Below, in pieces: positions 13,744 through 30,505 of a DNA stretch of 32,000 bases. Position numbers and translations under genes: made by a program. The stretch comes from Collinsella sp. An2 (GTDB lineage Bacteria; Actinomycetota; Coriobacteriia; Coriobacteriales; Coriobacteriaceae), in NCBI RefSeq assembly GCF_002160065.1, contig NZ_NFJW01000006.1, positions 1 through 32,000 of the forward strand. Direction: 5' to 3'. The notes under the pieces were generated by a model, which had not been told where the DNA came from, did no database searches, and worked only from the letters and a program-made list of their open reading frames with translations. Positions within the stretch are counted from its first letter, which is position 1. Each line of letters starts with the position of its first letter.

Positions 13744-13864
13744 TTGTGGCAATTTACACGCCCACCTTCTGTTTTGTGGCAATATACACGCTCAAGGGCG
13801 TAAAACAGGCACCTGAGCGTGTAGATTGCCACACGATAGCGAGCAAGCGTGTGGATTGCCACAA
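13744..13864. repeat. Four copies of a 17-18 bp motif (TGTGGCAAT-NN-ACACGC): two direct, then two inverted
   Basis: Copies: 13744-13761 TTGTGGCAATTTACACGC; 13774-13791 TTGTGGCAATATACACGC; 13817-13833 GCGTGTAGATTGCCACA; 13847-13864 GCGTGTGGATTGCCACAA. Same-orientation copies are 30 bp apart. The spacers between copies are not conserved. The copies differ only at the NN dinucleotide. Confidence 0.85.
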
Positions 13865-13910
13865 TTCCGCCCCTTGCGAATACATCGCACGCCAAAGGGA
13901 CGGCCGCCCG

Positions 13911-15831: not shown

Positions 15832-16604
15832 GAGATGCCTCCCAACAGCACGATCACGGCAACCATCGCGAGCTCGTCCCATTGCACGAACCATCCGGCA
15901 AGGTCCCCGGTCACACCGCCGAAGAGGCCAAATGCCATGTGCCGATACCATGCGAATCCCACAAGGCCCACCGCCACGGCGACGGCGCCGACCCAACCGC
16001 CGACACCGATGAGCAGAACCGCAAAGACGACCGCCTGCACGGTGAGCGCGCGACGGACCGACGCCGCGGCATCCGCTCCCCCGGCAAGCGAGGCGGCCAT
16101 GCCCTCGGGGCGGGCCTTTGGCCAGCAAGCGACCGCCACACCCGAAAGCGCACGGGAGAATGCGAAGAGTGGCACGAGAGCGACCGCTTGAAGCACCCCG
16201 GGCCTCCAGCTTGCAGCGAGCGAGAAAAAGAGCAGCAGGTAGCATCCGACCGCCATGACGCCGAAGGCGCCCGCGCGCGGATCCTTCATGATCTCCAGCC
16301 GGTGCGTGCGGTCCGCATAGCTGGCGAGCGCATCGGCCGTGTCGCAGAGCCCGTCCAGGTGAATGCCTCCGTTCACCACCAGGGGCATCGCGGTGAGCAC
16401 GGCCCCTTCGACCAGGGGCGGCACGCCCAGCGCGCCGGCGAGCATCGTCCACGCCGCCATGGTGAGCCCTTGAACCACGCCCACGGCCGGAAAACCTGCC
16501 AGCGCACTGCCCCCGTCCCAGTCGACACGCTCAAGAAGGGCGCGGGGCACCGGAATGCGCGAGAACACCGAAAACGCCGCAGCGACGGCATCGATCAGCT
16601 TCAT
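15828..16604 (-). CDS. cobS: Adenosylcobinamide-GDP ribazoletransferase (cobalamin synthase)
   Basis: Membrane protein with FSRIPVP, GGIHLDGLCDTADA, MKDPRAGAFG and GVTGDLAG motifs typical of CobS. The ATG at 16604 forms an ATGA overlap with the cobU stop. Confidence 0.9.
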   Translation of the reverse strand: MKLIDAVAAAFSVFSRIPVPRALLERVDWDGGSALAGFPAVGVVQGLTMAAWTMLAGALGVPPLVEGAVLTAMPLVVNGGIHLDGLCDTADALASYADRTHRLEIMKDPRAGAFGVMAVGCYLLLFFSLAASWRPGVLQAVALVPLFAFSRALSGVAVACWPKARPEGMAASLAGGADAAASVRRALTVQAVVFAVLLIGVGGWVGAVAVAVGLVGFAWYRHMAFGLFGGVTGDLAGWFVQWDELAMVAVIVLLGGIS

Positions 16605-17170
16605 CGTCCGCGCTCCCTCCACATCTCCTCGTTTCCACGCATCCAGACCGGCAGGCCCACGACGACCTCGACCACCGCGTCGGCCCGCCGTGCCAGCCGA
16701 GCGTTCACCCGCGCGATCGCGCGCTGGTAGCTGACGGTCTCGGGCGCATAGGACACGCCGTCCGAGGCGATGCTGTTCGTAACCACCACGCAGTCCTGTG
16801 CGGCCGCGGCGACGACGTCGATGCCATCGAGAACGGCCTCGACGACGCGGTCTTCCGCAAGCGTGCCTCCGCACGCGACTCCCGCCGAATCCGGTGACCA
16901 AAGCTCGTTTGCCAGCAGGTTGCCCACGTCCTCGACGAGCACGACGTCCGTGGAAGGAACCACCGCCCGCGCGAGGTCGCGCGAGCATTCGAGCAGACGG
17001 AATCCCTTGCCTCGCCTGAGCTCGCGATGCCGTGCGATCCGACGAGCAGCCTCCGTCCCGGCGGCTTCCATGGTCGCCACGTAGAGAACCGTCCCTCCGC
17101 GCGCCGTGCACAGCTCCTCCGCAAAGGCACTCTTACCGCTTGCGGCGCCGCCGATGACCAAGGCCTGCAC
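16601..17170 (-). CDS. cobU: Adenosylcobinamide kinase / adenosylcobinamide-phosphate guanylyltransferase
   Basis: P-loop VIGGAASGKSAFAE, LYVATMEAAG...RIARHRELR (the region holding the guanylyl-histidine in characterised CobU) and a C-terminal RVNARLARRADAVVEVVVGLP block. GTG start at 17170, 1 nt after the cobT stop. Confidence 0.85.
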   Translation of the reverse strand: MQALVIGGAASGKSAFAEELCTARGGTVLYVATMEAAGTEAARRIARHRELRRGKGFRLLECSRDLARAVVPSTDVVLVEDVGNLLANELWSPDSAGVACGGTLAEDRVVEAVLDGIDVVAAAAQDCVVVTNSIASDGVSYAPETVSYQRAIARVNARLARRADAVVEVVVGLPVWMRGNEEMWRERGR

Positions 17171-17171
17171 G

Positions 17172-18314
17172 CTAGCTCAGCTCCTCATAGGCGTCCAGGC
17201 CGCTCTCGTCGAACGTCGCGGCTTCGCGGTAGACCGCAAGCGCCTGGTCGAGAAGCGGCATGAGCGCGACGGCCCCCGTGCCCTCACCCAGGTGCATGCC
17301 GGCTTCGAGCGGCGCCGAGAGCCCCAGCCTTCCCAGAAGCAGACGCGCTGCAGGCTCCGACGAGCAGTGGCTGGCCAGCAGATAGTCCCGCGTGTCCGGT
17401 CGCAGTGCGGAGGCGACAGCCGCCGCCGTACACGAGATGACCCCGTCGAGCACGGCTGGGCATCGTGAGGCGGCGGCACCCAGATAAAAGCCGCACATCG
17501 CGCAGAGGTCGAGACCGCCCACCGAGGCGAGCACGCCCACCGGATCCGCAGGGTCGGGGGCGTTGACCGCAAGGGCACGGGTCACCACGGCGCGCTTCCG
17601 GCGGAGCCCCTCGTCGCTGAGGCCAGCACCGCGACCCACGGCGTCCTCGGGCGCAATGCCCAGCAACGCGCAGGCAACGGCCGCGCTTGTGGTGGTGTTG
17701 CCAATGCCCATCTCGCCGGCGGCGAGCAGGCGGGCGCCGCCCTCTGCAAGCAGACGCGCCACCGTGGCCCCCGCCAGAATCGTCGCAACGGCGCACGAGC
17801 GGCTCATGGCCGGCCCGCATGCGATGTCGGCGGTGCCGCGCACACAGGCAGCATCGTACAACCCCTCACAAGTAAGCTCGCGAGCCAGGCCGACATCGAC
17901 CGGCACGACCGCGCAGCCGGCGACGCGCGCCATGCGGCACACGCTCGCCGCACCTGCGGCCATGTTGCGCGCCGCGGTCCACGTCACGTCCTGGCCGCTT
18001 TGCGACACGCCCTCGGCGACCACGCCGTTATCGGCGATAAAGATCGCCAACGCACGAGGCTCGGACACGACATCCGGCGTGCCCTGGGCGCCCGCCATGC
18101 GCGTGACTGCCTCCTCGAGAAGCCCCAGGCCTCCGAGCGGCTTGGCGACGGAGTCCCAGCGTTCCCGCGCCACGTGCGACGCCTCCCGATCGACCGGTCG
18201 CACCACTTCGAGAAGCGCGCCGAGACGCTCCTCGAGGGCGCCGTCACCCGGCCCGGGCAATGCCGCGGCATCAAAGGCGGCGTGAAACCGTGCCTCGATA
18301 TCCTCAGCTGCCAC
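17172..18314 (-). CDS. cobT: Nicotinate-nucleotide--dimethylbenzimidazole phosphoribosyltransferase
   Basis: WDSVAKPLGGLGLLEE, FIADNGV, GEMGIGNTT and HLGEGTGA motifs typical of CobT. GTG start at 18314 with GGAAGGAGG 5 nt upstream. The longer ORF start at 18413 would overlap cbiA by 110 nt and has no SD. Confidence 0.88.
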   Translation of the reverse strand: MAAEDIEARFHAAFDAAALPGPGDGALEERLGALLEVVRPVDREASHVARERWDSVAKPLGGLGLLEEAVTRMAGAQGTPDVVSEPRALAIFIADNGVVAEGVSQSGQDVTWTAARNMAAGAASVCRMARVAGCAVVPVDVGLARELTCEGLYDAACVRGTADIACGPAMSRSCAVATILAGATVARLLAEGGARLLAAGEMGIGNTTTSAAVACALLGIAPEDAVGRGAGLSDEGLRRKRAVVTRALAVNAPDPADPVGVLASVGGLDLCAMCGFYLGAAASRCPAVLDGVISCTAAAVASALRPDTRDYLLASHCSSEPAARLLLGRLGLSAPLEAGMHLGEGTGAVALMPLLDQALAVYREAATFDESGLDAYEELS

Positions 18315-19692
18315 AGCGGCCTCCTTCCTCGCGATAGCGTGCCTGCGCCCGAACGAAGGCGCGGGCGGCGTCTGGATTCGAGGGATAGTATACGTGCGGG
18401 AAGCCGGCGGCAAGCGTCGGCGTCACGTCCATGCATGCCCAGCCCCGGTTGCGACGCGGCTTTGCCGCCCAGGCGCTGTCCCCTTCGCGCTCGGCACGCC
18501 AGTAGTGAAACTCATGACCTCGCAACACCGTGCCCGCCGGCCCATAGGGACCGGCGCACGCCATCGTGAGCTCTATATAGCCGAAATGGCCAAAGCCGCG
18601 CCCTCGGTAAGCCCCTCCGGGCAGCACCCCTGCCATGGGCCACGAGGTACCTCGGTCGTCGTCGAGGCTCTCGAGCAGGTACAGGTACCCGCCACACTCT
18701 GCGACCGTGGGCATCCCCGCCTTCACGGCTGCGCGGACGGCGGCGCGCATGCCTTCGTTGTCCGACAGCTCCTGCGCGTGGAGCTCGGGATAGCCGCCGG
18801 CAAGATAGAGCCCCGTCACACCCGCCGGCAGCTTCTCGTCGCGCAACGGGCTGAACGAAACAAGCTCCACACCCAGGTCTTCAAGCATGCGCAGGTTCTC
18901 GGCATAGCGAAAACAGAACGCCTCGTCGTCCGCCACGGCGCAACGGAGCCCCTCATAGGGCAGTCGCTCGGTTCGATAGGGAGCAGCGGTGACGGGCGCC
19001 GCGGAGCGTGCCACATCGACGAGGCGCTTGACGTCGAGTGTCTCCTCCAACACGTCCGCCATGGCATCCACCCGCCCGCGCAGGTCCTCGACCTCGTCGG
19101 CACCCACCAGACCAAGGTGGCGGCTTTCCAGCTGAAAGCGGTCGTCCTGCGGAAGGTACCCGAGCACCGGCACGCCCGTCTCGTCCTCGATGGCGCCCGC
19201 GGCATAGCGATACGCCGCCTCGGAGCAGCCGTTCAAGACCACACCGCGCACGCAGGCATCCGATCGGAAGCGGGCGAAGCCGTCGACGAGCGCGGCAAGC
19301 GACAGCGAGGCGCCGCGGGCGGATACCACCAGCACGACGGGGGTATCGGTCAGACGGGCAACGTCGTATGCGCTCGCGTCGGTCGTGCCGGGGGCCATGC
19401 CGTCGTAGAAGCCCATCGCCCCCTCGATGACGGCGATGTCGCTTCCCGCCGCCCCACGGGCCAGAAGGGCACGCAGGTCGGCCGCACTCGAAAAGAAGGC
19501 GTCGAGGTTGCCGGCGGCGACCCCGCTCACGCGGCGATGAAAGCGTTGGTCGATGTAGTCCGGTCCGCACTTGAACGCGGCGGGCCTCAGGCCCGACCGC
19601 TCGAGCAGCCGAATCAGCGCGCAGGTGAAGACGGTCTTACCCGAGGCGCTCGACGGGGCGGACACCATGAGACGTGCGGGAAGCTCGCTCAT
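18304..19692 (-). CDS. cbiA: Cobyrinate a,c-diamide synthase
   Basis: N-terminal SSASGKTVFTCALIRLL and FKCGPDYID, plus a C-terminal glutamine amidotransferase block (ECGGYLYL...GHEFHY), match CbiA/CobB. GAGGAGGAG upstream. ATGA overlap with the cbiET stop. Confidence 0.9.
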   Translation of the reverse strand: MSELPARLMVSAPSSASGKTVFTCALIRLLERSGLRPAAFKCGPDYIDQRFHRRVSGVAAGNLDAFFSSAADLRALLARGAAGSDIAVIEGAMGFYDGMAPGTTDASAYDVARLTDTPVVLVVSARGASLSLAALVDGFARFRSDACVRGVVLNGCSEAAYRYAAGAIEDETGVPVLGYLPQDDRFQLESRHLGLVGADEVEDLRGRVDAMADVLEETLDVKRLVDVARSAAPVTAAPYRTERLPYEGLRCAVADDEAFCFRYAENLRMLEDLGVELVSFSPLRDEKLPAGVTGLYLAGGYPELHAQELSDNEGMRAAVRAAVKAGMPTVAECGGYLYLLESLDDDRGTSWPMAGVLPGGAYRGRGFGHFGYIELTMACAGPYGPAGTVLRGHEFHYWRAEREGDSAWAAKPRRNRGWACMDVTPTLAAGFPHVYYPSNPDAARAFVRAQARYREEGGRCGS

Positions 19693-20939
19693 AGCTCCTC
19701 CTCCGCAACCATGCGCGCCGAGACGACGAAGACGGGATTCAGGGCGCGCATCAGGTCGTGGGAGCCGACGCGACGGGCGCGGGCCACTCCCACCTGCGAC
19801 ACCTCCATGTCGGCAAACCCGGGACCGGATAGGATCGGCAGCGCCGCCGAGAGTGTCTGAAGCGAGATACAGGTGATGCAGACGCGCGGCAGTCCCCCGC
19901 TGGCACGCACGGTGTCCAAGATCTCGGAGAGCTTCCCAGCAGACCCGCCGATAAAGACGGCGTCGGGCGCCGGCAGCCCGCGCAGGGCCTGGGGTGCCTC
20001 GCCCGCCACCACCTCGACGTTGCGCAGCCCGAAAGCGCGAACGTTGGCGTCGATGAGCTCCAGGGCCTCTGACGCCCGCTCTATTGCGAAGACCCGGCCC
20101 GCACGGGCAAGCAGCCCAAGTTCCACCGACACCGAGCCGGTCCCCGCCCCGATGTCATAGGCGATGTCGCCAGATCCGACACGCAGCTTCGCCAAAGCGA
20201 CCGCACGGACCTCCTGCTTGGTCATAGGCACCCGGCCGCGCTCAAAACACTCATCGGGAATGCCCGGGGTCACCCAGGGCCACGCGGTGCGCGACGCGTC
20301 GGCAGCGAAGTCGATGACCATAGCGTTGAGCGGAGCGAAGGAGACATTCACGAACTCGCCGGCGACGCCACGCACGATGCGCTCATCTGGATAGGAGAGC
20401 TGCTCGGCCACCGTCACGGCAGCGTCGCCGCATCCAGCCGCCACGAGCTCGCGGCAGACGGACGCGGGGCCCTCGGAGCCCCCTGTCACCAGAAAGAGCG
20501 TCCCACCGCGCGCCGCCTCGGCAGCAAGGTCGCATGCAGCGCCATGCACGCTTGCAAACCGCCAGTCCTGCCACGGCCTGCCAAGACGCGATGCCAGATA
20601 CGCCGCCGAGCTGATGCCCGGCACCGTCTCCACGGCACAATCCGCAAGCGCCGGCTCGTCCGCAAGGGCGCGCAGCACACCCGCCGCACCCGAGAAGAGC
20701 CCCGTATCTCCGCTCATGAGAACGCAAGCGCGCGACCACGTGGCGTCGCCCGCCAAAAAGGACGCGATGTCGCGAGCACGCACTGCCGCGTGCGCAGCCA
20801 CGCCGTCCGGCAGCGAAGTTCCTTCCAGCAGACGGGGCGACCCCACCGCCACGTCGCATGCACCCAGCGCCGCGCGGGCGCGCTCGGCAAGCAGGTCGGC
20901 GGCGCCAGGACCGCATCCGATTACCGTGACGCTTCTCAT
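19689..20939 (-). CDS. cbiET: Fused cobalt-precorrin-7 C5-methyltransferase / cobalt-precorrin-6B C15-methyltransferase (decarboxylating)
   Basis: The N-terminal half is a tetrapyrrole methylase (VIGCGPG...LMSGDTGLFS). The C-terminal half is a CbiT-like SAM methyltransferase (MTKQEVRAVALAKL...DIGAGTGSVSVE). 416 aa; ATGA overlaps at both ends. Confidence 0.88.
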   Translation of the reverse strand: MRSVTVIGCGPGAADLLAERARAALGACDVAVGSPRLLEGTSLPDGVAAHAAVRARDIASFLAGDATWSRACVLMSGDTGLFSGAAGVLRALADEPALADCAVETVPGISSAAYLASRLGRPWQDWRFASVHGAACDLAAEAARGGTLFLVTGGSEGPASVCRELVAAGCGDAAVTVAEQLSYPDERIVRGVAGEFVNVSFAPLNAMVIDFAADASRTAWPWVTPGIPDECFERGRVPMTKQEVRAVALAKLRVGSGDIAYDIGAGTGSVSVELGLLARAGRVFAIERASEALELIDANVRAFGLRNVEVVAGEAPQALRGLPAPDAVFIGGSAGKLSEILDTVRASGGLPRVCITCISLQTLSAALPILSGPGFADMEVSQVGVARARRVGSHDLMRALNPVFVVSARMVAEEEL

Positions 20940-21673
20940 CGGTCCAGCTCCCGATATCCACGCGGCGTGACCATGCGCCCGCCCTCCAGGCGCGTGGCGG
21001 CGTTGCCCACAAAGATTGTCGTAAACATATCGGCCTCAAACGACCCCAGCTCAGAGAGCGGCAGGGTACCGGCCTCCTCACCGTCACGACCGATGTTGCG
21101 CACCCAGCCGCACACGGTCTCGGGCGCCTTATGAGAAAGCAGCGCCTCCGCCGCGCGGGCCAGGTGGTCCCTGCGCTTCTTGCTGCGGGGGTTATACAAG
21201 CAGACGCACAGGTCTGCCCAGGCACACGCGACAAGCCGCCGCTCGATGACATCCCACGGCGTCAGAAGGTCCGAGAGCGATATGACCGCAAAGTCGTGCC
21301 CCAGCGGAGCACCGAGGCGGGCCGCGCCGCTCTGAGCCGCGGTGACGCCCGCCACGACCTCGACCTCGACCTCAGGATAGTCCGGCGCGAGCTCGAGCAC
21401 GGGCGCGGCCATGCCGTAGACGCCCGCGTCCCCGCTACAGACGAGGGCGCAGGTCGTCCCCGCATCGGCGATCTCGAGCGCACGACGGCAGCGTTCCACC
21501 TCGCGCATCATGGGCGTCGACTCGCATCGCTTACCCGCAACGAGCGGCATTACGAGCTCGAGATAGGCGTTGTAGCCTACCACGGCATCGGCTCGCTCGA
21601 GGGCGGCGCGCGCCTCGTCGGTCATGCCGTCGAGACGCCCCGGCCCGATGCCCACCACATAGAGGGTTCTCAT
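20936..21673 (-). CDS. cbiH: Cobalt-factor III (precorrin-3B) C17-methyltransferase
   Basis: LYVVGIGPGRLDGMT, VVGYNAYL, VCSGDAGVYGMA and the family-typical C-terminus (TTIFVGNAATR) match CbiH/CobJ. Confidence 0.9.
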   Translation of the reverse strand: MRTLYVVGIGPGRLDGMTDEARAALERADAVVGYNAYLELVMPLVAGKRCESTPMMREVERCRRALEIADAGTTCALVCSGDAGVYGMAAPVLELAPDYPEVEVEVVAGVTAAQSGAARLGAPLGHDFAVISLSDLLTPWDVIERRLVACAWADLCVCLYNPRSKKRRDHLARAAEALLSHKAPETVCGWVRNIGRDGEEAGTLPLSELGSFEADMFTTIFVGNAATRLEGGRMVTPRGYRELDR

Positions 21674-22680
21674 GCTTCCTCCTCAAACGAATAGGTCCAG
21701 GTTCGACATGCGAGCGCGACGGTGACGCCGTCCTGCGCGCGCTTGGGCACGATGAGCGCGCCGCCGCCTGCAAGCGCCGCGCGCTCGCACACGTTATCGA
21801 CCCCGCACACCTGCTCCACGAACGGTGACGACGAGACGCTGCCCTCGACGGAGGCGAGCTCGTCCACCCCGTAGAACGCAAGCGGCAATCCCCATGCCTC
21901 GGCCCAGCCGGCCAGACCCTCCTCGTCGCGTTTGAGCTCGATACTCGCCGCAGAGGCAACCGCCGCGCGAGGGACGCACGCCTGTGCGAGCGCGGCCTCG
22001 ACCGCGCGCCCGACCGCCGCGGCCGCGATGCCACGCCGGCATCCGACGCCGACGGTCACCGAGGGCGGCACCAGATGCAGCGCCTTCTCCTCCGCATGCA
22101 CGACAGGGGACATGATCACCTGCGCCTGGTCCCGCGCAACGACACGCTCCAAGCCGCGCGGCAGCTCGCCTTCCAGCACGCCGTCCAGATAGACCGTGAC
22201 GGCATCCCCTGCGAGCAGGCGCGCCGACACACCCTTCACGCGTCCGGGCTCAACGACGGCAAGCCCCGCGTCGTGCGCCCATCCGTCCGGGGACCACACA
22301 CCGCGCACGTCGCTCGCGGTGGTGATGACAGGGGTTGCCCCCACCGCCCGCCCAAGCTGCTCGGCCAGGCGGTTCGCCCCTCCCAGATGCCCCGAGAGCA
22401 GCGAGATGCACCAGGTTCCCCCCTCGTCCATGACCACGACGGCGGGGTCATGCGCCTTTGAGCGCACGTGCGGGGCGATGGCGCGCACGGCGATGCCCAG
22501 AGCGCCCACGAAAAGAAGTGCGTCGGCGTCGGCAAACGCCTCTGCCGTCCACGCCGCAAGCGGGCGCTTGCCCTCGCCAAAGCCGCGGGCGGCCTCACAA
22601 TCCCAGCCGTCGAGCGCACGGCACGCCCGCGACGCCAGCTTCCAGCCGCGCTCGGTAAACGCAATGGCGGCAAGTCTCAT
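21670..22680 (-). CDS. cbiG: Cobalt-precorrin-5A hydrolase
   Basis: Trimmed to the ATG at 22680 (ATGA overlap with the cbiL stop). FVGALGIAVRAIAP, DPAVVVMDE, ISLLSGHLGGAN and a C-terminal VGVGCRRG...ASIELK block match CbiG. The upstream 145 codons of ORF 21670..23115 are out-of-frame overlap with cbiL. Confidence 0.85.
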   Translation of the reverse strand: MRLAAIAFTERGWKLASRACRALDGWDCEAARGFGEGKRPLAAWTAEAFADADALLFVGALGIAVRAIAPHVRSKAHDPAVVVMDEGGTWCISLLSGHLGGANRLAEQLGRAVGATPVITTASDVRGVWSPDGWAHDAGLAVVEPGRVKGVSARLLAGDAVTVYLDGVLEGELPRGLERVVARDQAQVIMSPVVHAEEKALHLVPPSVTVGVGCRRGIAAAAVGRAVEAALAQACVPRAAVASAASIELKRDEEGLAGWAEAWGLPLAFYGVDELASVEGSVSSSPFVEQVCGVDNVCERAALAGGGALIVPKRAQDGVTVALACRTWTYSFEEEA

Positions 22681-23369
22681 GGACGTATCACCAGCGTCGT
22701 GAAGTACGAGCCCTTGTCGGGTGCTTCGTCCAGGTTGCGCACGACAAGCTCCCCCGGCATGCCGCAGTCGGCCACAAGCGACACTCGCTCGTACACCCCG
22801 GCCTCGGCAAGGTCGCGCTTGAGTTCGCCGAGATGCGCCCCGGCCTTCATGACCACCTTGGTGCCCGGCATGGCGAGCGCGTCCGACAGCCCGGCTGCGC
22901 GGGCGGGAACGATATGGAGCGGCTCGCGCTCGGACGGCGTGAGGTCTGCGTCTAGACGAGCCGCCACCGCGCAGAAGCTCGGCACGCCGGGCACGGCATG
23001 CGTCTCGAACCCGGCCGCGCGAACAAGACCGGCGACGCGCTGGAAGGTGGCATAGATGCTCGGATCGCCCAGGTTGAGCAGGGCCACATCGCTGCCCGAG
23101 CCAAGCAGCTCGCAAAGCTCCGCCGCCGCACGCTCGTAGCCCCGGTCCCGTTCGGCGGCGTCCCTGCTCATGGAAAACGACAGCCGGACGATACGCTTAT
23201 CGGCAAGGTCGACGGCCTGGCGCACGATGTCGAGCGCAAGCGTTCCGCCGCCCGACGTCATGGGCGCCGCCACGACGGGGCACGATTGGATGGTGCGCAC
23301 CGCCTTGAAGGTGATGAGCTCAGGGTCTCCCGGCCCCACGCCCACGCCATACAGGATGCCCTTACGCAT
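22677..23369 (-). CDS. cbiL: Cobalt-factor II (precorrin-2) C20-methyltransferase
   Basis: LYGVGVGPGDPELITFKA, LNLGDPSIYATF and PGVPSFCA are tetrapyrrole methylase motifs. Size and position match CbiL/CobI. Confidence 0.88.
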   Translation of the reverse strand: MRKGILYGVGVGPGDPELITFKAVRTIQSCPVVAAPMTSGGGTLALDIVRQAVDLADKRIVRLSFSMSRDAAERDRGYERAAAELCELLGSGSDVALLNLGDPSIYATFQRVAGLVRAAGFETHAVPGVPSFCAVAARLDADLTPSEREPLHIVPARAAGLSDALAMPGTKVVMKAGAHLGELKRDLAEAGVYERVSLVADCGMPGELVVRNLDEAPDKGSYFTTLVIRP

Positions 23370-24522
23370 GATCTCTCCTCATCCGAGCAAGCAGCTCGTC
23401 CACCCCATCGGTGCGGAAGAGCTCGCCGCGCACGTTGCTGAACACAATCGCCGCCACCGTACAGGGTGGTGCCCCATCGGCGCGCGCACGCTCCGCGCGA
23501 TACGCCAGCCTTCGACCAAGGGCCCGGGCAAGGCTCTGCGACACGGGGGCAAGCAGCCCCGCGTCCGCAATCGCGTCGAGCGCGGCGTCGGTGGTCGGCG
23601 ACTCCATGATGGCCCGCGCTACGTCGACCCCAGCGCCCGCAAGGGCAGCGTGGGCCGTCAGCGTCTCAAGCCGGGTGTCGGCTACCTGCGAATGCGTATC
23701 CATGACGCCGGCGGCGACCTTGACCATCTTGCCGATATGCCCGACCACCAGGACGCCCTCGGCCCCCGCATGCACGGCGGCGTCGAGGGCGGCCCCAATA
23801 AAGTTGGAGCATACCACCATCGGAACATCGAGGCGGGGCAAGCTCCGCTCGATATAGGCCTCGCCATAGTTGCCGGGGGTCACCAGCAGATCGCGCGCAC
23901 CGGCGGCAATCGCCTGCGAGACTTCGAGCTCGACGCTGCGGCGCAGGGCGTCAAGGCTGCGCGGCTCGACGATACCGGTGGTCCCCAGAATCGATATGCC
24001 CCCGCGAATGCCGAGGCGCGGGTTGAAGGTCCGCTCGGCGATGCGCTCCCCCTCGGGCGCGGACACCGTGAGCGCAACACCTCCTTCATAGCCGCAAGCT
24101 GCGCAGACCTCCCGTACCGCGGCGGCGATCTGGGCGCGGGGCACAGAGTTTATGGCGGCCTCGCCCACCGGCTGCTCAAGCCCCGGCTGGGTGACGCGCC
24201 CTATACCCTCGCCGCCATCGATCGCAATGCCGTCCCGCGAACGACGCGCCTCGACGTAGATGAGCATGCCGTCGGTCGCGTCCACGTCGTCGCCGCCATC
24301 CTTGCGCACCGCGCAACGCGCAACGCCCGAGGCGACGGTGGAATCGAGCACCTCGGCCTCGACGACGACCCCTCCCGGCGTGGTCACCCATGCCCGCGGA
24401 GGGACGGCGCCGCGCAACAGGCCTGTGCAGGCAGCCTGCGCAGCCAGGGCGGCGCAGGTTCCCGTTGTGTATCCGCAGCGAAGCCTCCGGTTGCCCGACC
24501 AGCGGTACAAATCGAGCGCCAT
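23362..24522 (-). CDS. cbiD: Cobalt-precorrin-5B C1-methyltransferase
   Basis: Trimmed to the ATG at 24522 (MALDLYRWSGNRRLRCGYTTGTCAAL). GISILGTTGIVEP and VGHIGKMVKVAAG are CbiD hallmarks. Confidence 0.9.
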   Translation of the reverse strand: MALDLYRWSGNRRLRCGYTTGTCAALAAQAACTGLLRGAVPPRAWVTTPGGVVVEAEVLDSTVASGVARCAVRKDGGDDVDATDGMLIYVEARRSRDGIAIDGGEGIGRVTQPGLEQPVGEAAINSVPRAQIAAAVREVCAACGYEGGVALTVSAPEGERIAERTFNPRLGIRGGISILGTTGIVEPRSLDALRRSVELEVSQAIAAGARDLLVTPGNYGEAYIERSLPRLDVPMVVCSNFIGAALDAAVHAGAEGVLVVGHIGKMVKVAAGVMDTHSQVADTRLETLTAHAALAGAGVDVARAIMESPTTDAALDAIADAGLLAPVSQSLARALGRRLAYRAERARADGAPPCTVAAIVFSNVRGELFRTDGVDELLARMRRDHA

Positions 24523-24526
24523 GGCC

Positions 24527-25351
24527 TTACGCCTCGCAGCCCGGACTTGCAGACGAAGGTTCGCGCGGCTCGCCGTCGACGTGGGCGTCGGCACCTGCGT
24601 CGTGCGCCGGGCGGAACAGCGTCGCAAACCCGGGGTCGTACAGGCGGCTGCGCTCGTAGGATGCGTCGAGCACACGCCCCACCACGACGAGGGCGGTCAG
24701 GCGGATGCCGTGCTCCTTGCCCGTCTTCGCAAGCGTTCCCACCTGGCAGCGCAGGACGACCTCGTCGGGCCAGGTCGCCTTGTAGACGATCGCCGCCGGT
24801 TCCCGCTCGCTGCGGCCCGCGGCGAGCAGCTCTTCCTGCAGCCGTTCAAGATGCCCCGCGCTCAAAAAGATCACGAGCGTAGAACCATGGGCGGCCAAGC
24901 TCCGCATGTCTTCCCCTGCAGGCATGGGGGTACGCCCTGCCAGGCGCGTGAGCATGACCGTCTGGCTGATTCCCGGCAGGGTCAACTCCTGCTCCAATGC
25001 GGCCGCCGCGCCGCAGAAGCTCGACACGCCGGGGACCACGTCGAAGGGGATACCGCGCTCGCGCAGAGCGTCCATCTGTTCCTGGATCGCGCCGTAGACG
25101 CTTGGGTCGCCCGTGTGCAGGCGCACCACCTCAAGGCCGTCCCGCTCGGCGCGCTCCATGGCATCGAGAACCTCTTCGAGCGTCATGCGGGCGCTGTCGA
25201 GGATCTCGCAGTCCTCGCGACAGACCTTCAGCAGCTCGGGATTCACCAGGCTGCCCGCCCATATCACCATGTCGGCACGGCGCAGCAGCGCGTCCCCGCG
25301 CAACGTGATGAGGTCGGGCGCGCCGGGGCCGGCACCCACGAAATGCACCAT
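24527..25351 (-). CDS. cbiF: Cobalt-precorrin-4 C11-methyltransferase
   Basis: VHFVGAGPGAPDLITLRG, LHTGDPSVYGAI and PGVSSFCGAAA match CbiF/CobM. I chose the ATG at 25351 (GAAGGGAG 8 nt upstream). In-frame alternatives at 25372 and 25408 lack an SD. First gene of the 17-gene operon. Confidence 0.9.
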   Translation of the reverse strand: MVHFVGAGPGAPDLITLRGDALLRRADMVIWAGSLVNPELLKVCREDCEILDSARMTLEEVLDAMERAERDGLEVVRLHTGDPSVYGAIQEQMDALRERGIPFDVVPGVSSFCGAAAALEQELTLPGISQTVMLTRLAGRTPMPAGEDMRSLAAHGSTLVIFLSAGHLERLQEELLAAGRSEREPAAIVYKATWPDEVVLRCQVGTLAKTGKEHGIRLTALVVVGRVLDASYERSRLYDPGFATLFRPAHDAGADAHVDGEPREPSSASPGCEA

Positions 25352-25519
25352 AGGGGTCGCTCCCTTCGTCATGGCGGCGCCCGTCCGGCCGGGCGCGTGT
25401 GGGAGCATTGTAGCGCACGGCCACCCATGTCCGCCGCCGACGGACCTGCTGCGGATTCCTTGCGCACATTTAGCCTGCAGCCCCGCTCCGTGAGACGCGC
25501 GGGGCGCGACGCGTTAAGA

Positions 25520-25700
25520 TGGGGCGGTGCCGCTTCTCAGCGGGGCGGCCGACATATGAACCAGGAGACGGCCGGCGCTCGTACCGCCGGGTCATCAAAG
25601 GGAATCAGGTGCGAATCCTGAGCAAGGGCCATTACTGTGTGCGCGGCCTCACCGCGCGAGCCAGACTGCTTTGCCGTCCCCTCTCGGCCCTCGAGGCCGT
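25520..25700 (+). promoter_or_regulatory. Cobalamin (B12) riboswitch-like aptamer
   Basis: The core GGGAATCAGGTGCGAATCCTGAGC (25600-25623) matches the conserved GGGAA-N3-GGTG-N-AA-TCC-N3-GC element. ACTGT follows at 25634-25638, then a short hairpin GTGCGCGG/CCGCGCG, then a B12-box-like GAGCCAGACTGC (25658-25669). A hairpin CCGGCG/CGCCGG precedes the core. The CCCGC element is divergent (GGGCC). The boundaries are approximate. Confidence 0.6.
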
Positions 25701-25783
25701 GGCGCCGACCTTCCGTGAACCCCGGAGGGACCGCACATTCAAGAGCCGCGTCGGCATGGAGGCCGGCGGGCGCTTCGTCCTGT

Positions 25784-25813
25784 GCGCTCTCCGACCGGTC
25801 GAAGAGCGTTTTT
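25784..25813 (+). terminator. Intrinsic terminator, probable riboswitch expression platform
   Basis: CGCTCTCCGA/TCGAAGAGCG stem with one mismatch, followed by TTTTT (25809-25813). It lies ~110 nt after the aptamer core and 76 nt before the ATG at 25889. Confidence 0.55.
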
Positions 25814-25888
25814 CGTATGCGCGAGACGTCCCGTGAGCCCGTGCGACCGCACGGGCGGACCCCATACGCACAAAGAAAGGACGAAGCC

Positions 25889-26812
25889 ATGGCCAAAACC
25901 AGCATGACTCGCAGAAACCTGGTGAAAGGAGCGACGGTGGCAGGCGTCGGAGCCGCCGCCGCGATGCTCGCCGGCTGCGCCAACGACGCCGCACAGACGG
26001 CCGCGCAGGCCGCCGTCAAGCCCGTCATCCTCGTAACGAGCTTTGGCACGAGCTATGCCTCGAGCCGTCACAGCACGATCGGGGCGATCGAGTCGGCGAT
26101 CCGCGAACGCTTCCAGCCCACGTATGACGTGCGACGCGCGTTCACCTCTGACACCATCATCGACATCCTCAAAGAGCGCGACGGCATCTCCATCGACAAC
26201 GTCGACGAGGCGATCTCCCGCTGCATCGACGACGGGGTGCGCACCCTGGTGGTCCAGCCCACGCATCTCATGGAGGGCTACGAGTACACCGACCTCGCCG
26301 ACGCGCTCGAGAAGGTGCGCGACAGCTTTGACGACGTGGTGCTCGGACGGCCGCTTCTCGACACGCAGGAGGACCTCGACGCCGTCGCCGACGCGCTGAC
26401 CGAGGAACTCGCCGACTACGACGACGGATCGTGCGCGCTCGTCCTCATGGGGCACGGCACCGAATCCGACGCGAACGGTGTCTACGCCGCCCTGCAGAAG
26501 ACCTTCGACGCCCGCGGGCAGCACCAGTTCTTCGTGGGCACGGTTGAGGCCGAACCCACCTGCGACGACGTGATCCGCGCGGTGACCGAGGCCGGCTATA
26601 CGCGCGCCGCGCTCTCCCCGCTCATGGTCGTCGCCGGCGACCATGCAACCAACGACATGGCTGACCGAAACGACCCCGAGTCCTGGGTCTCGCGCTTCGA
26701 GGCGGCTGGCATCGAGACCACCTGCATCCTCGCCGGCCTGGGTCAGTACGCCGGCATCGATTCAATCTACGTCGACCACGTCTCGGCTGCCATCGACAGC
26801 CTGAAAGGATAG
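25889..26812 (+). CDS. cbiK: Sirohydrochlorin cobaltochelatase CbiK homologue with Tat-type lipoprotein signal peptide
   Basis: The mature part aligns along its length with CbiK (ILVTSFGTSY, RRAFTS, VQPTHLMEGYEY, LMGHGT, PLMVVAGDHATNDM). The N-terminus MAKTSMTRRNLVKGATVAGVGAAAAMLAGC has a twin-arginine motif (TRRNLVK), a hydrophobic core and a lipobox (LAGC). An alternative in-frame ATG lies at 25964. Confidence 0.88.
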   Translation: MAKTSMTRRNLVKGATVAGVGAAAAMLAGCANDAAQTAAQAAVKPVILVTSFGTSYASSRHSTIGAIESAIRERFQPTYDVRRAFTSDTIIDILKERDGISIDNVDEAISRCIDDGVRTLVVQPTHLMEGYEYTDLADALEKVRDSFDDVVLGRPLLDTQEDLDAVADALTEELADYDDGSCALVLMGHGTESDANGVYAALQKTFDARGQHQFFVGTVEAEPTCDDVIRAVTEAGYTRAALSPLMVVAGDHATNDMADRNDPESWVSRFEAAGIETTCILAGLGQYAGIDSIYVDHVSAAIDSLKG

Positions 26813-26818
26813 GTATTC

Positions 26819-27352
26819 ATGAAGCTCACCTACGGCGCGTGCGCGCTCACCCTTATCGTCGCTCTTTCCGGCTGCAGCGCTCAGCCAGCAGCGACAAACG
26901 GTTCCGCGCCGGCGGCCACAGGCTCCGCTGTCGTATCCACAGGCTCCACGGACGCGTCCTCCAGCGAAAAGACGACGCCCATCACGGCCGACATGCTCGT
27001 GCCGGGGTCCTATGAGATCGACGTCGACTCGAGCTCCAGCATGTTCCGCATCGTCGCAGCGACGCTCGACGTGACGAACGACGGCATGACCTGCACCATG
27101 ACGCTTTCGGGCACCGGCTACGAGAAGCTCTATATGGGCACGGGCGAGCAGGCCGCCGCAGCCCCGGATGAGGACTGCTCGTACTTCGTCGAGGGCGCCG
27201 ACGGCTCCTACTCCTACACCGTCGCGGTTCCCGCCCTGGACAGCGACGTCGATTGCGCGGCGTTCAGCATCCGCAAGCAGAAGTGGTACGACCGCGTGCT
27301 CGTGTTCCGCTCCGACAGCCTGCCGGCAGACGCCTTCGCAGCCAACGCCTAA
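26819..27352 (+). CDS. Small lipoprotein, unknown function (domain shared with the next gene)
   Basis: MKLTYGACALTLIVALSGC is a signal peptide with a lipobox. An S/T/A-rich linker is followed by a ~110-aa domain. AAGGA lies 9 nt upstream. The gene starts 6 nt after the cbiK stop. Confidence 0.7.
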   Translation: MKLTYGACALTLIVALSGCSAQPAATNGSAPAATGSAVVSTGSTDASSSEKTTPITADMLVPGSYEIDVDSSSSMFRIVAATLDVTNDGMTCTMTLSGTGYEKLYMGTGEQAAAAPDEDCSYFVEGADGSYSYTVAVPALDSDVDCAAFSIRKQKWYDRVLVFRSDSLPADAFAANA

Positions 27353-27371
27353 TCGAAAAACGAGGATCCCC

Positions 27372-28910
27372 ATGATGCGCGCCTCCACGACTAGAGCCCC
27401 CTTTGCACGCCTCGCATGCGTCGCGCTGCTGGTGCTCGCCTTGCTGACAGCCGTCGGATGCACCTCGGCGCCTACAGCCGACGGTACGCCCGCCGATGGC
27501 TCCTACCAGGTATCGCTTGAGCTTGAGGGCGGCTCCGGCAGGGCGACGGTCGAAAGCCCTGCCGAGGCGCGTGTGGAGGATGGGCGCATCACGCTTGAAG
27601 TCGTGTGGTCGAGCTCGAACTATGACCTCATGGTCGTAGACGGCGTCGAATACGCGCCCACCTCGACCGAGGACGGCTCGACCTTCGAGATCGCCGTGCC
27701 CGCGCTCGAAGGCAACGTGGCGGTCGAGGCGCGGACCACCGCCATGGGCGACCCGCACCTCATCTCCTACACCCTGCACCTTGGCGATGCTGGCGACGAA
27801 AACCAAGGTGCCTCTACGGCAAGCGATGGGGACGCGATCCTGGTCGCCGACTACCACAATCCCGATCTGGGCTGTGGATGGGCGCCTGTCTCGTCGCTTG
27901 ACCTCTCACACGCGAAGAACTTCACAGTCGATGACTACGAGGGCGGCTATCGGCTCATCTGCATTGCCGATGGCAGCAGGTACCTGCTCGTTCCCGAGGG
28001 CAAGCAGGCTCCGGAGGGCCTTGCCTCGGACATCCGCGTCGTCGCGCAGCCGGCAGACCAGGTCTATCTGGTGTCGTCGGCCGTGGCGTGTCTTGTGGAT
28101 AAGATCGATGCGCTCGACCATGTGGCCGCGACCTCGGTAACCCCTCAGACCTGCTCGGTCGAGCGCCTGAAGGACGCCATCGAAGACGGGTCCATCCCCT
28201 ATGCGGGCCGCTACAACACCCCCGACTACGAGGTCATCACCGAAGCCGGCTGCACGCTCGCCGTCGAGAACACCATGATCTACCACACGCCCGAGGTTCG
28301 CGAAAAGCTTGAAGACCTGGGAGTCACCGTCCTCACCGAGCTCTCGAGCCGCGAGACCGAGGTCCTGGGACGGCTGGAGTGGGTCAAGCTATTCGGCGTG
28401 CTCTTCGGACGCGAAAGCGAGGCGACGAGCTTCTTCAACGAGGCTTGCGAGCGCATCGAGCAGGTCTCGGCGGACGAGCCGAGTGGCAAGACGGTGGCGT
28501 TTTTCTACATCAACTCCAACGGAGCGGCCGTGACCCGGCGCTCGAACGACTACGTATCGCAGATGATCGAGCTCGCCGGCGGCACGTACCTCTTCTCGGA
28601 CCTCCCCGGCGATGACGGGACCTCGTCCTCCACCGTCACGGTCGAGATGGAACAGTTCTATGCCATGGCCCGCGATGCCGACATCATCATCTACAACGGC
28701 ACGACCGACGACAGCATTGACGCCATCGACGACCTCGTGGCCAAAAACCCGCTGCTCGCACAGTTCCGCGCCGTACAGAACGGCCAGGTGTGGATCTGCA
28801 ACCGCAACATGTACCAGCAGATGGCAGACTCGGCCGACATCATCGAAGAGCTTCACGCCATCGTCTCCGGCAACGCGGGGCAGCTTGCCTACTTCCGCAA
28901 GATCTCGTAG
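27372..28910 (+). CDS. Lipoprotein: N-terminal unknown domain fused to a FecB/BtuF-type (cluster A, PF01497-like) ABC substrate-binding domain
   Basis: Trimmed to the ATG at 27372 (GAGGA upstream). The signal/lipobox is ALLTAVGC. Residues ~40-135 resemble the preceding lipoprotein. The C-terminal ~330 aa have the periplasmic-binding-protein pattern (RVVAQPADQVYLVSS..., LEDLGVTVLTELSSRETEVLGRLEWVKLFGVLFGRESEA). Confidence 0.8.
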   Translation: MMRASTTRAPFARLACVALLVLALLTAVGCTSAPTADGTPADGSYQVSLELEGGSGRATVESPAEARVEDGRITLEVVWSSSNYDLMVVDGVEYAPTSTEDGSTFEIAVPALEGNVAVEARTTAMGDPHLISYTLHLGDAGDENQGASTASDGDAILVADYHNPDLGCGWAPVSSLDLSHAKNFTVDDYEGGYRLICIADGSRYLLVPEGKQAPEGLASDIRVVAQPADQVYLVSSAVACLVDKIDALDHVAATSVTPQTCSVERLKDAIEDGSIPYAGRYNTPDYEVITEAGCTLAVENTMIYHTPEVREKLEDLGVTVLTELSSRETEVLGRLEWVKLFGVLFGRESEATSFFNEACERIEQVSADEPSGKTVAFFYINSNGAAVTRRSNDYVSQMIELAGGTYLFSDLPGDDGTSSSTVTVEMEQFYAMARDADIIIYNGTTDDSIDAIDDLVAKNPLLAQFRAVQNGQVWICNRNMYQQMADSADIIEELHAIVSGNAGQLAYFRKIS

Positions 28911-29171
28911 CACAGCGCGTCGCAGCGCGGCACGTGGACCGAATCCACAGGCGCGGGCGGCCGGGTTCAGCCTCCTAGAGACGCAACCCGGCCGTACGTG
29001 GAGCCGAAAGCACGATGCAAGCCAGCACGACAGGCAGCCTTTTGTGCCGGTTTGCTCAAGTCGGCAAGCGAACGACACGCCGGCGAAAAGATGGCCTATC
29101 GTAGTGCAGCCAAGAAGTTGCGCCGCATGCAATCCATGTGACCGGTTACCGAAAGGCATAGGAAGGCACAG

Positions 29172-29723
29172 ATGACCGATACGCTGACCATGCGCCGCGC
29201 CCTCCCCGAAGAGGCGACGCGCGTACTTGAAATTCTTGAAGACGGCAAGCGCTCAATCGCCCGCTTCGGCATCGAGCAGTGGCAGTGCGGCTACCCCAAC
29301 CTGGACTCCGTGCAGGGAGACCTTGCCCAGAACGCCTGCTATGTCGCCGTCGACCATGAAGGGGAGCTTGTGGGCACGCTCGCCCTCCGGCTTGACGTCG
29401 ACCCCGAGTATTCGATTGCCAACATTCCCTGGCTTACCCCGAACCCCACGGAAGAGCCCGTCCCCTACGCTGCCATCCACCGCTGCGCGACCGCCGCGTC
29501 TGCGCTCAAACGGGGGGTGATGGGCTTCCTGTTTGCTGCCGCCGAGGACGTCGCGCGTGGAGCGGGTCGCCAGAGCATCCGCATCGACACACATCCGGGC
29601 AACCTGGCTATGCGTGGCTTTTTGGAGCGCAACGGCTTTACCGAGCTTGGGCGCTTCGAGCTTGCCACCAAGGGCGACCAGGAGACCGATGTCGTGCGCA
29701 TCGGCTATGAAAAGCTGCTGTAA
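29172..29723 (+). CDS. GNAT family N-acetyltransferase
   Basis: AGGAAGG upstream of the ATG at 29172; 183 aa. GNAT-like layout (YVAVDHEGELVGTLAL..., RGAGRQSIRIDTHPGNLAMRGFLERNGF). Confidence 0.8.
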   Translation: MTDTLTMRRALPEEATRVLEILEDGKRSIARFGIEQWQCGYPNLDSVQGDLAQNACYVAVDHEGELVGTLALRLDVDPEYSIANIPWLTPNPTEEPVPYAAIHRCATAASALKRGVMGFLFAAAEDVARGAGRQSIRIDTHPGNLAMRGFLERNGFTELGRFELATKGDQETDVVRIGYEKLL

Positions 29724-29783
29724 CGTCCCTTACGTGAGACCTCAGATTGCGGGAACGCGCCCGCTGGAAGGAAGATGAGCACC

Positions 29784-30389
29784 ATGCAACGGCTGTATCT
29801 CATGCGACACGGCCAGACCGAATACAACCTCAAGGGCCTCGTGCAGGGTCACTGCGACTCGCCGCTCACCCAAAAGGGCATCGACGAGGCACGCGAGGCG
29901 GCGCGATGGCTTGCCGACCAAAACGTCGAGATCGGCTATGCATGCTCCTCTCCCCTCGGGCGCGCCCACGACACCCTGAGCATCGTGATCGATGAGAATC
30001 CGGCGTTTGCGAGCGTCCCGCGAGCCGACGAGCCCGGCCTCATCGAGCGCTGCTACGGCACCTACGAGGCAGGCCCGATGGCCGACATGCCCATCAGCCC
30101 GTGGAACCCCCACGACGAGCTCGTGGCATGTGGCGGCGACCGTGAGCTGGATGCGCGTAAGCGCATCGTCGAGGCGCTTACGCGCGCCATGGACGAGCAC
30201 CCCGGCCAAAACGTGCTAGCGGTCGCGCACGGGGCGATCATCACGCAGTTCAAACTCGCCTGGGAATCCCGCGCAACATGCCCCCAAGACGTCTTCTTGG
30301 GCAACTGCTGCATCCTTGTCTTTGATTACGACCCCAAGGACCACACGTTCACCAACACCCGCATCGTGAACCAGGCGGACCAGGCCTAA
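29784..30389 (+). CDS. Histidine phosphatase family protein (phosphoglycerate mutase-like)
   Basis: MQRLYLMRHGQTEYN (RHG motif) and AHGAIIT later. I preferred the ATG at 29784 (GGAAGGAAG 9 nt upstream) over the ATG at 29775, which abuts the SD. Confidence 0.8.
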   Translation: MQRLYLMRHGQTEYNLKGLVQGHCDSPLTQKGIDEAREAARWLADQNVEIGYACSSPLGRAHDTLSIVIDENPAFASVPRADEPGLIERCYGTYEAGPMADMPISPWNPHDELVACGGDRELDARKRIVEALTRAMDEHPGQNVLAVAHGAIITQFKLAWESRATCPQDVFLGNCCILVFDYDPKDHTFTNTRIVNQADQA

Positions 30390-30413
30390 GCTCGAGCCAA
30401 GACTCCGCCGCAA

Positions 30414-30491
30414 GGCGCCCTTCTGATTCCCCGCGGGCGTGGTCCTCGGCTTCGCCTGCGGGAAACGCCCGCGGGGAATCAGAAGGGCGCC
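30414..30491. terminator. Perfect 26-bp inverted repeat with 26-nt loop between convergent genes
   Basis: GGCGCCCTTCTGATTCCCCGCGGGCG (30414-30439) is the exact reverse complement of 30466-30491. It sits between the stop at 30389 (+) and the stop at 30506 (-). No U-tract. Each arm contains the self-complementary CCCGCGGG. Confidence 0.6.
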
Positions 30492-30505
30492 AACCGGAAT
30501 GTCCG

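Follow-up and report, generated by a model that had tools for sequence, protein, structure and literature searches.

The DNA analysed here is a 32,000-nucleotide (nt) stretch from Collinsella sp. An2 (contig NZ_NFJW01000006.1, positions 1 to 32,000, forward strand), referred to as the window, and the subject is a set of three consecutive lipoprotein genes that lie behind a cobalamin (vitamin B12) riboswitch. The G+C content of the window is 66%. Its nearest named relatives are Collinsella species, and open reading frame 2 (ORF2) of the trio is ~60% identical to C. ihumii. The trio is on the + strand after a leader of ~480 nt, and the gaps between the ORFs are 6 and 19 nt. The first gene (25889..26812) encodes a 307-residue lipoprotein of the CbiK family (PF06180) with a class II chelatase fold, a twin-arginine-type signal and a lipobox. 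ORF2 (26819..27352) encodes a 177-residue lipoprotein composed of a signal peptide, a low-complexity linker and one predicted NEAT-fold domain at approximately residues 51-175. ORF3 (27372..28910) encodes a 512-residue fusion lipoprotein in which a second predicted NEAT-fold domain (approximately residues 41-141, nt 27492-27794) precedes a class-III (Peripla_BP_2) binding domain (approximately residues 203-511, nt 27978-28907). The N-terminal signal sequences end in the lipoboxes MLAGC (CbiK), ALSGC (ORF2) and TAVGC (ORF3), and a sequence check agreed with the initial annotation of this DNA on all three.

The riboswitch leader

The initial annotation had marked a cobalamin-riboswitch-like core and a stem-T5 terminator ahead of CbiK, and both held up. 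A focused scan with RF00174 (Rfam clan CL00101) returned a full-length match at 25552-25692 on the + strand (model positions 1-189, 24.0 bits, E = 3.9e-4). The aptamer is a G+C-rich variant with a short peripheral extension, and the orthologous leader of C. ihumii (locus L001) scored 22.1 bits against the same model. Alignment of these two leaders showed a nearly invariant aptamer core and B12 box and divergent flanks. The core GGGAAyCAGGTGsGAATCC and the box AGCCAG..GCC were found upstream of CbiK in 16/16 Coriobacteriia leaders with the divergent layout, window included, and an alignment of eight divergent-layout leaders contained compensatory changes on both sides in 7 of the 15 predicted pairs. 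These data identify the element as a real, divergent cobalamin riboswitch; adenosylcobalamin binding and switching are predicted from the comparison of sequences.

The intrinsic terminator of the predicted expression platform (25784..25813, + strand) has a 7+3 bp stem followed by U5 and a calculated stability of -13 kcal/mol, which is weak taken alone (z = -1.6). L001 has a terminator at the same position with another sequence (12-bp stem plus U5, -19.9 kcal/mol, z = -3.9), and the feature is kept by position, not by sequence, between the two. Scanning 25300-29300 for sigma-70 promoters and simple terminators gave nothing useful; the terminator was missed by the simple scan because its stem holds a mismatch. 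A conserved hairpin, TCCGTGAACCCCGGAGGG, lies between aptamer and terminator (25712..25729, + strand). It is identical in the window, L001 and L006, and the spacer around it is not conserved. The hairpin is probably part of the expression platform and possibly a kissing-loop partner.

The five-component unit in Clostridia and Coriobacteriia

A collection holding one genome per species was scanned for relatives of ORF2, and at least 573 confirmed stretches encode one. Eighty loci from this species-level scan, together with loci from protein look-ups, were annotated with hidden Markov models (HMMs) made from the identified proteins, and features were counted over 84 non-redundant loci. CbiK was present in 80/84 loci, a second NEAT-like domain in 77/84, a binding protein in 77/84 and a FecCD-type permease in 74/84. 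At least one cbi gene lay within 10 kb at 48/84 loci and at least four at 37/84, and many modules are placed inside cbi operons. The Lachnospiraceae-type order is CbiK, a two-domain NEAT-like protein, binding protein, FecCD and ATPase. The Ruminococcus-type order is NEAT-like-2, binding protein, FecCD, ATPase, CbiK and NEAT-like, with cbiC/D/F/G/H/J/ET/A and cobT next on the same strand. The Coriobacteriia-type order starts from a divergent cbi operon and continues with CbiK, NEAT-like, a NEAT-like::binding-protein fusion, FecCD, ATPase and an opposite-strand ABC1 kinase. CbiK::NEAT-like fusions occur in eight loci; fusion or repeat proteins of this kind were recorded at L030, L047, L059, L076, L077, L080, L081, L083 and L004, and L004 also encodes a CbiK-CbiK tandem fusion of 581 residues (8118-9863).

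In 20 of 21 distinct Clostridia loci, the sequence immediately ahead of the first module gene matched RF00174 with 36-123 bits (L004, L009, L011, L012, L014, L058 and 14/14 further loci). With the invariant core of the Coriobacteriia leaders, these matches show, at the level of sequence, that the unit belongs to the B12 regulon. E-value-mode Rfam searches of the whole 20-kb loci L001, L005 and L006 gave no match because the E-value scales with the sequence searched. In the window the trio is divergent from an anaerobic cobalamin biosynthesis operon of ~16 kb (9668..25408, - strand), identified by Pfam scans and our own HMM annotation, with the genes cbiF-D-L-G-H-ET-A, cobT, cobS, cobC, cbiB, cobD, cbiP, cbiC and cbiJ. 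Pfam scans, HMM annotation and a motif search found no chelatase or cobalt transporter gene in this operon. The window intergenic region at 25373-25551 contains no minus-strand riboswitch for the operon, and the + strand aptamer was the only one found. Among relatives, L002 has a minus-strand RF00174 match of 101 bits and L014 a minus-strand AdoCbl-II match of 41 bits. In the window lineage the trio thus appears to be B12-controlled and ring synthesis not, at least by no recognisable riboswitch. Between the divergent cbi riboswitch and the module CbiK, L002 also contains a 130-residue ORF with no Pfam match (8394-8786, + strand).

A FecCD gene stands next to the binding protein in 73 of the 75 loci that have a binding protein and enough flank, and only the window and L001 have none there. 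FecCD and ATPase are also absent from the near-identical loci L006-L008, L093 and L095, and the sequence of L097, a strain ~97% identical to the window, stops directly behind the binding protein. Pfam and HMM scans found no FecCD permease or ABC (ATP-binding cassette) ATPase gene anywhere in the 32 kb. As the initial annotation had stated, the next genes are a GNAT (29172-29723, + strand) and a histidine phosphatase (29775-30389, + strand). By synteny they occupy the site of FecCD and ATPase in relatives (28911..30505, + strand), and the ABC1-kinase gene that follows (30506-31984, - strand) is the conserved synteny anchor. The order is binding protein-FecCD-ABC-ABC1 kinase in L022 and L024, binding protein-ABC1 kinase in L001 and binding protein-GNAT-histidine phosphatase-ABC1 kinase in the window, with the kinase on the minus strand in each. 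FecCD and ATPase are kept in the Collinsella loci L022, L024, L042, L044, L050-55 and L065. Other Collinsella carry the two genes between binding protein and ABC1 kinase, and therefore they were deleted from the window locus. Membership of the GNAT and the histidine phosphatase in the unit was considered and rejected, both being absent at L001 and all other loci. Judged by this synteny, the trio is derived by deletion from a unit of CbiK, a NEAT-like protein, a binding protein (with or without a fused NEAT-like domain), FecCD and ATPase. The initial annotation had taken the operon to be built without permease or ATPase. This view of its design was not sustained, as 73/75 loci carry both genes and the loss is derived.

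A search with the Collinsella in-module permease returned two proteins labelled C. tanakaei with 67% identity. Both belong to stand-alone binding protein-FecCD-ATPase operons at an unrelated locus (L089 and L091). Their binding proteins are 54-56% identical to the ORF3 binding domain (56% for the L089 protein of GCA_016900335.1), and the in-module orthologue is 53% identical. The L089/L091 permease is 57% identical to the L002 module permease versus ~30% to the BtuC-like permease of L002. The sister genome GCA_016900335.1 has a trio-only locus (L095, P0012) on contig 2 and the stand-alone transporter L089 on contig 1. This arrangement corresponds to the split transporter that the initial annotation had foreseen if an orphan permease were encoded elsewhere; for the window genome itself the same arrangement is an extrapolation.

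Loss of the permease and ATPase might have left the trio functionless and on the way to becoming pseudogenes. The absence of both genes at a conserved synteny point fits such decay, as does the somewhat relaxed ratio of nonsynonymous to synonymous substitution rates (dN/dS) of ORF2, 0.48 in the comparison with L097. The corresponding values for CbiK and ORF3 are both 0.19, near the 0.16 of the CbiD control. None of the three ORFs is disrupted in the window, L097, L001, L006-8, L093 and L095 despite ~60-68% amino-acid identity, the riboswitch core and terminator are conserved, and a same-family permease and ATPase are encoded elsewhere in the sister genome. The intact ORFs and the dN/dS of ~0.19 for CbiK and ORF3 led to the rejection of decay as highly improbable. 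The substitution pattern shows that the trio is under purifying selection.

The chelatase, NEAT-like and binding domains

The first protein had been called a full-length CbiK homologue, and its PF06180 match (7.4e-76, residues 47-302) covers the whole family model. The N-terminus contains the twin-arginine motif TRRNLVK, a hydrophobic core and the LAGC lipobox, which predicts that this CbiK is exported rather than cytoplasmic. Its GHG, VE and GDHA motifs align with those of Salmonella enterica CbiK (1qgo), which we take to be His145, Glu175 and His207. After 1qgo, the next solved relatives are the 'Heme-binding protein FetB' (9b86, 1.7e-38) and a Desulfovibrio 'putative chelatase' (2xvx, 1e-30), both exported CbiK paralogues. 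The Desulfovibrio protein is reported to have a signal peptide, to bind haem and to keep chelatase activity in vitro. Export is a general property of the module, with a signal peptide on 80 of 85 CbiK ORFs and a lipobox as well on 73/85. The signal is of the Sec type in Clostridia and of the twin-arginine type in Coriobacteriia. The catalytic GHG/GDH motifs are kept in all scorable module CbiKs but one.

Many Lachnospiraceae-type exported CbiKs carry a conserved acidic motif, EENYDTGDASLDNxRNQDEIGExELLVVSFGT, just before the chelatase core (L011, L025, L034, L045, L048, L056-58, L061, L062, L064, L074, L077, L082, L084, L086 and L087). The motif is absent from the Coriobacteriia and Ruminococcus versions and could be a metal-binding or docking segment.

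ORF2 matched no family in Pfam or NCBIfam, and to this extent its domain is unrecognised, as the initial annotation had it; structure prediction makes it recognisable as a remote NEAT fold. The AlphaFold2 model has a predicted local distance difference test score above 95 for residues 51-175. Foldseek comparison of this model with the PDB gave NEAT or Shp structures as all of the top 32 matches, the best being IsdX1 (E = 1.2e-3, target-normalised template modelling score ~0.64-0.65). The model of the ORF3 N-terminal domain gave NEAT or Shp structures as 50 of its 50 best matches, with IsdC first (1.2e-5). Sequence similarity is far fainter. Neither window ORF2 nor ORF3 matched Pfam NEAT (PF05031), a weak match occurs in 10/43 family members (best E = 0.0028), and the ORF2 family profile found no meaningful match among PDB sequences. 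BLASTP relates the two window domains to each other only marginally (E = 0.056), and hhalign of the ORF3 domain against the ORF2 family supports a distant relationship (89.5% probability, E = 2e-6). The models thus identify ORF2 and the ORF3 N-terminal domain as remote NEAT folds, of the eight-stranded, immunoglobulin-like architecture. The initial annotation had described ORF3 as a copy of the ORF2 domain joined to a FecB/BtuF-type domain, and hhalign, the shared NEAT fold and the Peripla_BP_2 match bear this out.

The ORF2 family is large: one search gave more than 1,500 matches, and an exhaustive search gave 1,366 cluster representatives at E <=1e-3. At the N-terminus, full-length members have either a lipobox or a cleavable signal peptide, and some relatives have a C-terminal membrane anchor in place of the lipid. 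An invariant W156-Y157-D-R is followed by L161 at +4 (Y157xxxL161) in the ORF2 family, and H129 and Y133 are invariant in the ORF3 N-terminal domain (H129xxxY133). Both motifs are placed on the last strand by the secondary structure of the models. The Y157 motif of ORF2 and H129/Y133 of ORF3 may be metal ligands. For ORF2 relatives, the fold disagrees with the names assigned by JGI, 'major membrane immunogen' and 'FMN-binding domain', and both names were rejected. NEAT-like domains also occur in giant proteins of 1,000-2,500 residues with up to 10 repeats (P0241-P0278).

ORF3 matched Peripla_BP_2 (PF01497) at residues 234-476 (4.4e-32); an exact look-up of the whole protein found no record. 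In profile comparison its binding domain is closest to Lmo2184 (5e-9) and more weakly similar to IsdE (6e-3), and IsdE is also its best, weak, NCBIfam match. The permeases of related modules score best against BtuC among NCBIfam models. The best model for the module ATPase is a putative F420-0 ABC ATPase, with the corrinoid ABC transporter ATPase model nearly equal. The ATPase has a C-terminal extension of ~120-140 residues (L024 13197-14387, L002 13070-14191, L089 9050-10213), part of which is spanned by the corrinoid ABC transporter ATPase model NF007082. A precomputed assignment of the extension to Pfam PF27219 'MJ0874' was not reproduced by our own Pfam scan. The junction between the NEAT-like and binding domains of ORF3 holds an invariant D-L-G-C-G/D (residues 160-172, nt ~27849-27887). 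This motif is lipobox-like but internal, is also present in the stand-alone binding proteins of L089 and L091, and may be a gene-fusion relic or mark a functional cysteine.

NEAT is a haem-relay fold, and the module could serve haem or iron acquisition, a role established for the Gram-positive Isd systems and proposed for the Iht system of Porphyromonas gingivalis, with the exported CbiK binding haem or stripping its iron and the NEAT domains passing haem to an IsdE-like binding protein. The affinity of the ORF3 binding domain for Lmo2184 and IsdE agrees with this, as do the position of FetB as second-best solved relative of the window CbiK and the occurrence in Porphyromonas gingivalis of a haem-binding, CbiK-like lipoprotein (IhtB/FetB) encoded with a binding protein, permease and ATPase (PMC12094164). 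Against it, 20/21 Clostridia loci and the Coriobacteriia use a cobalamin riboswitch and not an iron regulator. Modules systematically lie within cbi operons, neither NEAT-fold domain has the YxxxY haem-ligand motif, and the Pfam NEAT match is weak and found in fewer than a quarter of the family members. Haem or iron uptake is very unlikely because of the regulation and the neighbourhood.

The same comparison defines what the module shares with the Isd and Hbp systems (Staphylococcus aureus IsdA/B/C/H-IsdE-IsdF, Bacillus anthracis IsdX1/X2, Listeria Hbp2-Lmo2184). In both, NEAT folds anchored at the surface precede a class-III binding lipoprotein and an ABC importer of the FecCD type, and the models of ORF2 and the ORF3 N-terminal domain match IsdX1, IsdC, IsdA, Hbp2 and Shp structures. 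Unlike Isd, which is under iron/Fur control and anchored by sortase, the module is under a cobalamin riboswitch and anchored by lipid or a C-terminal helix; no sortase gene was found in the annotated loci. The module is further set apart by the marginal sequence similarity of its NEAT domains to Pfam NEAT, an exported CbiK as obligatory partner, the fusion of one NEAT fold to the binding protein, and linkage to cbi rather than haem degradation genes. The P. gingivalis Iht system (IhtA-E) is a partial precedent in that IhtB/FetB (9b86), a confirmed surface lipoprotein homologous to CbiK, is encoded with the binding lipoprotein, permease and ATPase IhtCDE (PMC12094164). Unlike the module, Iht is Gram-negative, has a TonB-dependent receptor and no NEAT-fold proteins, and is discussed, with a hypothetical mechanism, as a haem/iron system that is not reported to be controlled by a B12 riboswitch.

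Cargo of the module and its place among corrinoid systems

The reading given the most weight, with a probability of about 0.6, is that B12 represses the trio and that its proteins form the cell-surface half of a split relay, similar to Isd, which carries a cobalt tetrapyrrole or corrinoid. The exported CbiK-fold lipoprotein and the NEAT-fold lipoprotein would capture the ligand at the cell surface, by analogy with Isd, and pass it on to the second NEAT-fold domain. The IsdE/BtuF-class binding domain fused to the latter would dock onto a FecCD/BtuC-type permease powered by the ATPase. When adenosylcobalamin is plentiful it would bind the leader riboswitch, and transcription would stop at the terminator ahead of CbiK. 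In the window genome and its closest relatives, permease and ATPase were deleted from the locus and the trio is kept by selection; it most likely feeds a permease and ATPase of the same family encoded elsewhere. The cargo would most likely be a cobalt tetrapyrrole, either a salvaged corrinoid or an early cobalt intermediate. Riboswitch control and the affinities of the permease for BtuC and of the ATPase for the corrinoid model fit corrinoid salvage. The order of the relay and the identity of its cargo are proposals. The initial annotation had put forward a module at the cell surface, repressed by B12, that captures a ligand of the tetrapyrrole type, with a chelatase-fold protein and a second domain outside the cell. 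Riboswitch, export signals and folds argue for both points, and the second domain proves to be duplicated and of predicted NEAT fold.

Several observations weigh against this reading. RF00174 gave no match in the whole window at the Rfam gathering threshold, and the 24.0 bits of the aptamer are below the gathering score of 31.5, mainly because the peripheral extension has 10 nt versus 62 in the model. L002/L003, the exception among the Clostridia loci, has no + strand riboswitch upstream of the module, and the riboswitches found there serve the divergent cbi operon and a BtuFCD-like system distinct from the module. The YxxxY motif is absent from both NEAT-fold domains, and profile comparison detected no similarity of the ORF3 binding domain to BtuF. 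The trans-encoded permease and ATPase were found in the sister genome, from which their presence in the window genome is inferred. The stand-alone L089 transporter has its own binding protein, a motif search found no riboswitch core upstream of it, and it may serve another function. The cargo itself is proposed from fold, regulation and neighbourhood only.

A rather unlikely alternative is that the exported CbiK is the true sirohydrochlorin cobaltochelatase of the pathway and works outside the membrane. Co-sirohydrochlorin would then travel through the NEAT domains, the binding protein and the ABC importer and be methylated by CbiL in the cytoplasm, and the module would supply B12 synthesis with cobalt and carry out its chelation step as well. 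The near-universal retention of the catalytic motifs fits this role. No CbiK-like ORF other than the exported CbiK occurs in the ~1.5 Mb of module loci, including the 37 with at least four cbi genes, and a motif search found no CbiM-like N-terminus in the same sequence. The Ruminococcus-type CbiK lies within the cbi operon behind a single riboswitch. CbiL is the methyltransferase that acts on the CbiK product, and its gene directly follows the module ATPase in five loci (L014 14077-14781, L015 5415-6119, L030 14144-14878, L058 14230-14961 and L063 13957-14664). The divergent cbi operons of L014 and L030 contain the other ring-synthesis genes but no cbiL. The riboswitch-controlled BtuFCD-like system of L002 is 2.4 kb from the module and separate from it (permease ~30% identical), and therefore the module there is not simply a B12 importer. 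A Desulfovibrio locus resembles the module in that one B12 riboswitch serves cbiK, cbiL and a BtuCDF-type transporter (PMC545781). Its CbiK differs in being Gram-negative and periplasmic, not a Gram-positive surface lipoprotein, and in having no NEAT-fold partners. A review of cobalt (PMC7689651) makes no mention of Desulfovibrio or of a periplasmic CbiK.

Cobalt insertion outside the membrane would require export of sirohydrochlorin, and no exporter was seen in the module; the scheme is also without precedent. The window CbiK scored 208.3 bits against the NCBIfam biosynthetic CbiK equivalog NF047852, far below the cutoff of 400. The evidence on a second chelatase (CbiX, SirB) or a cobalt transporter covers the module loci, a part of each genome. 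Desulfovibrio vulgaris has a separate cytoplasmic CbiK besides the periplasmic one, so an exported paralogue beside cbi genes need not be the biosynthetic enzyme. A further-reaching version makes the tetrapyrrole a 'cobaltophore' and is likewise unlikely. Anaerobic B12 synthesis in several hundred gut species of Clostridia and Coriobacteriia would then have its cobalt insertion outside the cytoplasmic membrane. Lipid-anchored CbiK would metallate the tetrapyrrole at the surface, the NEAT relay would hand it to a dedicated ABC importer, and the module would replace both the cytoplasmic chelatase and a CbiMNQO-type cobalt transporter.

Capture of a cobalt tetrapyrrole or corrinoid by a split surface relay, the preferred reading, places the module beside the BtuFCD importers and the Bacteroides proteins BtuG and BtuH. 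Uptake by these systems is likewise repressed by B12 riboswitches. The module permease is closest to BtuC, the ATPase matches the corrinoid model including part of the C-terminal extension, and the module shares with BtuG/BtuH the logic that surface lipoproteins take a scarce corrinoid ahead of the transporter. The module differs from BtuFCD in its binding domain, and from BtuG/BtuH in its capture folds, which are chelatase and NEAT here. BtuG is a beta-propeller. The individual parts are known: NEAT-to-IsdE-to-IsdF relays, an exported CbiK with binding protein, permease and ATPase, the Desulfovibrio riboswitch-cbiK-cbiL-btuCDF arrangement, and riboswitch-controlled corrinoid importers. The combination of a NEAT-fold relay, an exported CbiK and a B12 riboswitch in Gram-positive bacteria is apparently undescribed. 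The initial annotation knew of no system of this composition in Gram-positives, and searches of the literature outside subscription journals found none, nor any NEAT fold in a cobalamin regulon.

Vitamin B12 and its analogues are traded and contested in the gut, where surface capture machinery is known for Bacteroides; no description of such machinery in Gram-positive anaerobes was found in the literature. The module is more widespread than the initial annotation could show, is under B12-riboswitch control almost everywhere tested, and joins a BtuC-like importer to two folds of haem biology, the class II chelatase and NEAT. If corrinoid capture is its function, it would be a Gram-positive counterpart of BtuG/BtuH, and NEAT folds would serve ligands other than haem. 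Were the exported CbiK a true biosynthetic chelatase, textbook cytoplasmic cobalt insertion would fail for the species with the module, and pathway predictions that count the gene as a cytoplasmic "CbiK" would mask its external location. The window represents the rarer state, in which the surface half is retained without an adjacent membrane half, a natural experiment on splitting of the module. Gene loss and a trans-encoded transporter would explain an operon without a transporter.

The rest of the window contains further genes of note. Three His_Phos_1 paralogues lie within the 32 kb, at 8898-9593 (+ strand), 14879-15562 (- strand) and 29775-30389 (+ strand). The one inside the cbi operon is probably CobC, another is just outside the operon, and the third is at the FecCD/ATPase site. 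The methionyl-tRNA synthetase ORF at 6471-8849 (+ strand) has 792 residues, and its class I synthetase domain starts at residue 128; the preceding segment represents either a genuine extension of the N-terminus or an ORF called too long in high-GC sequence.

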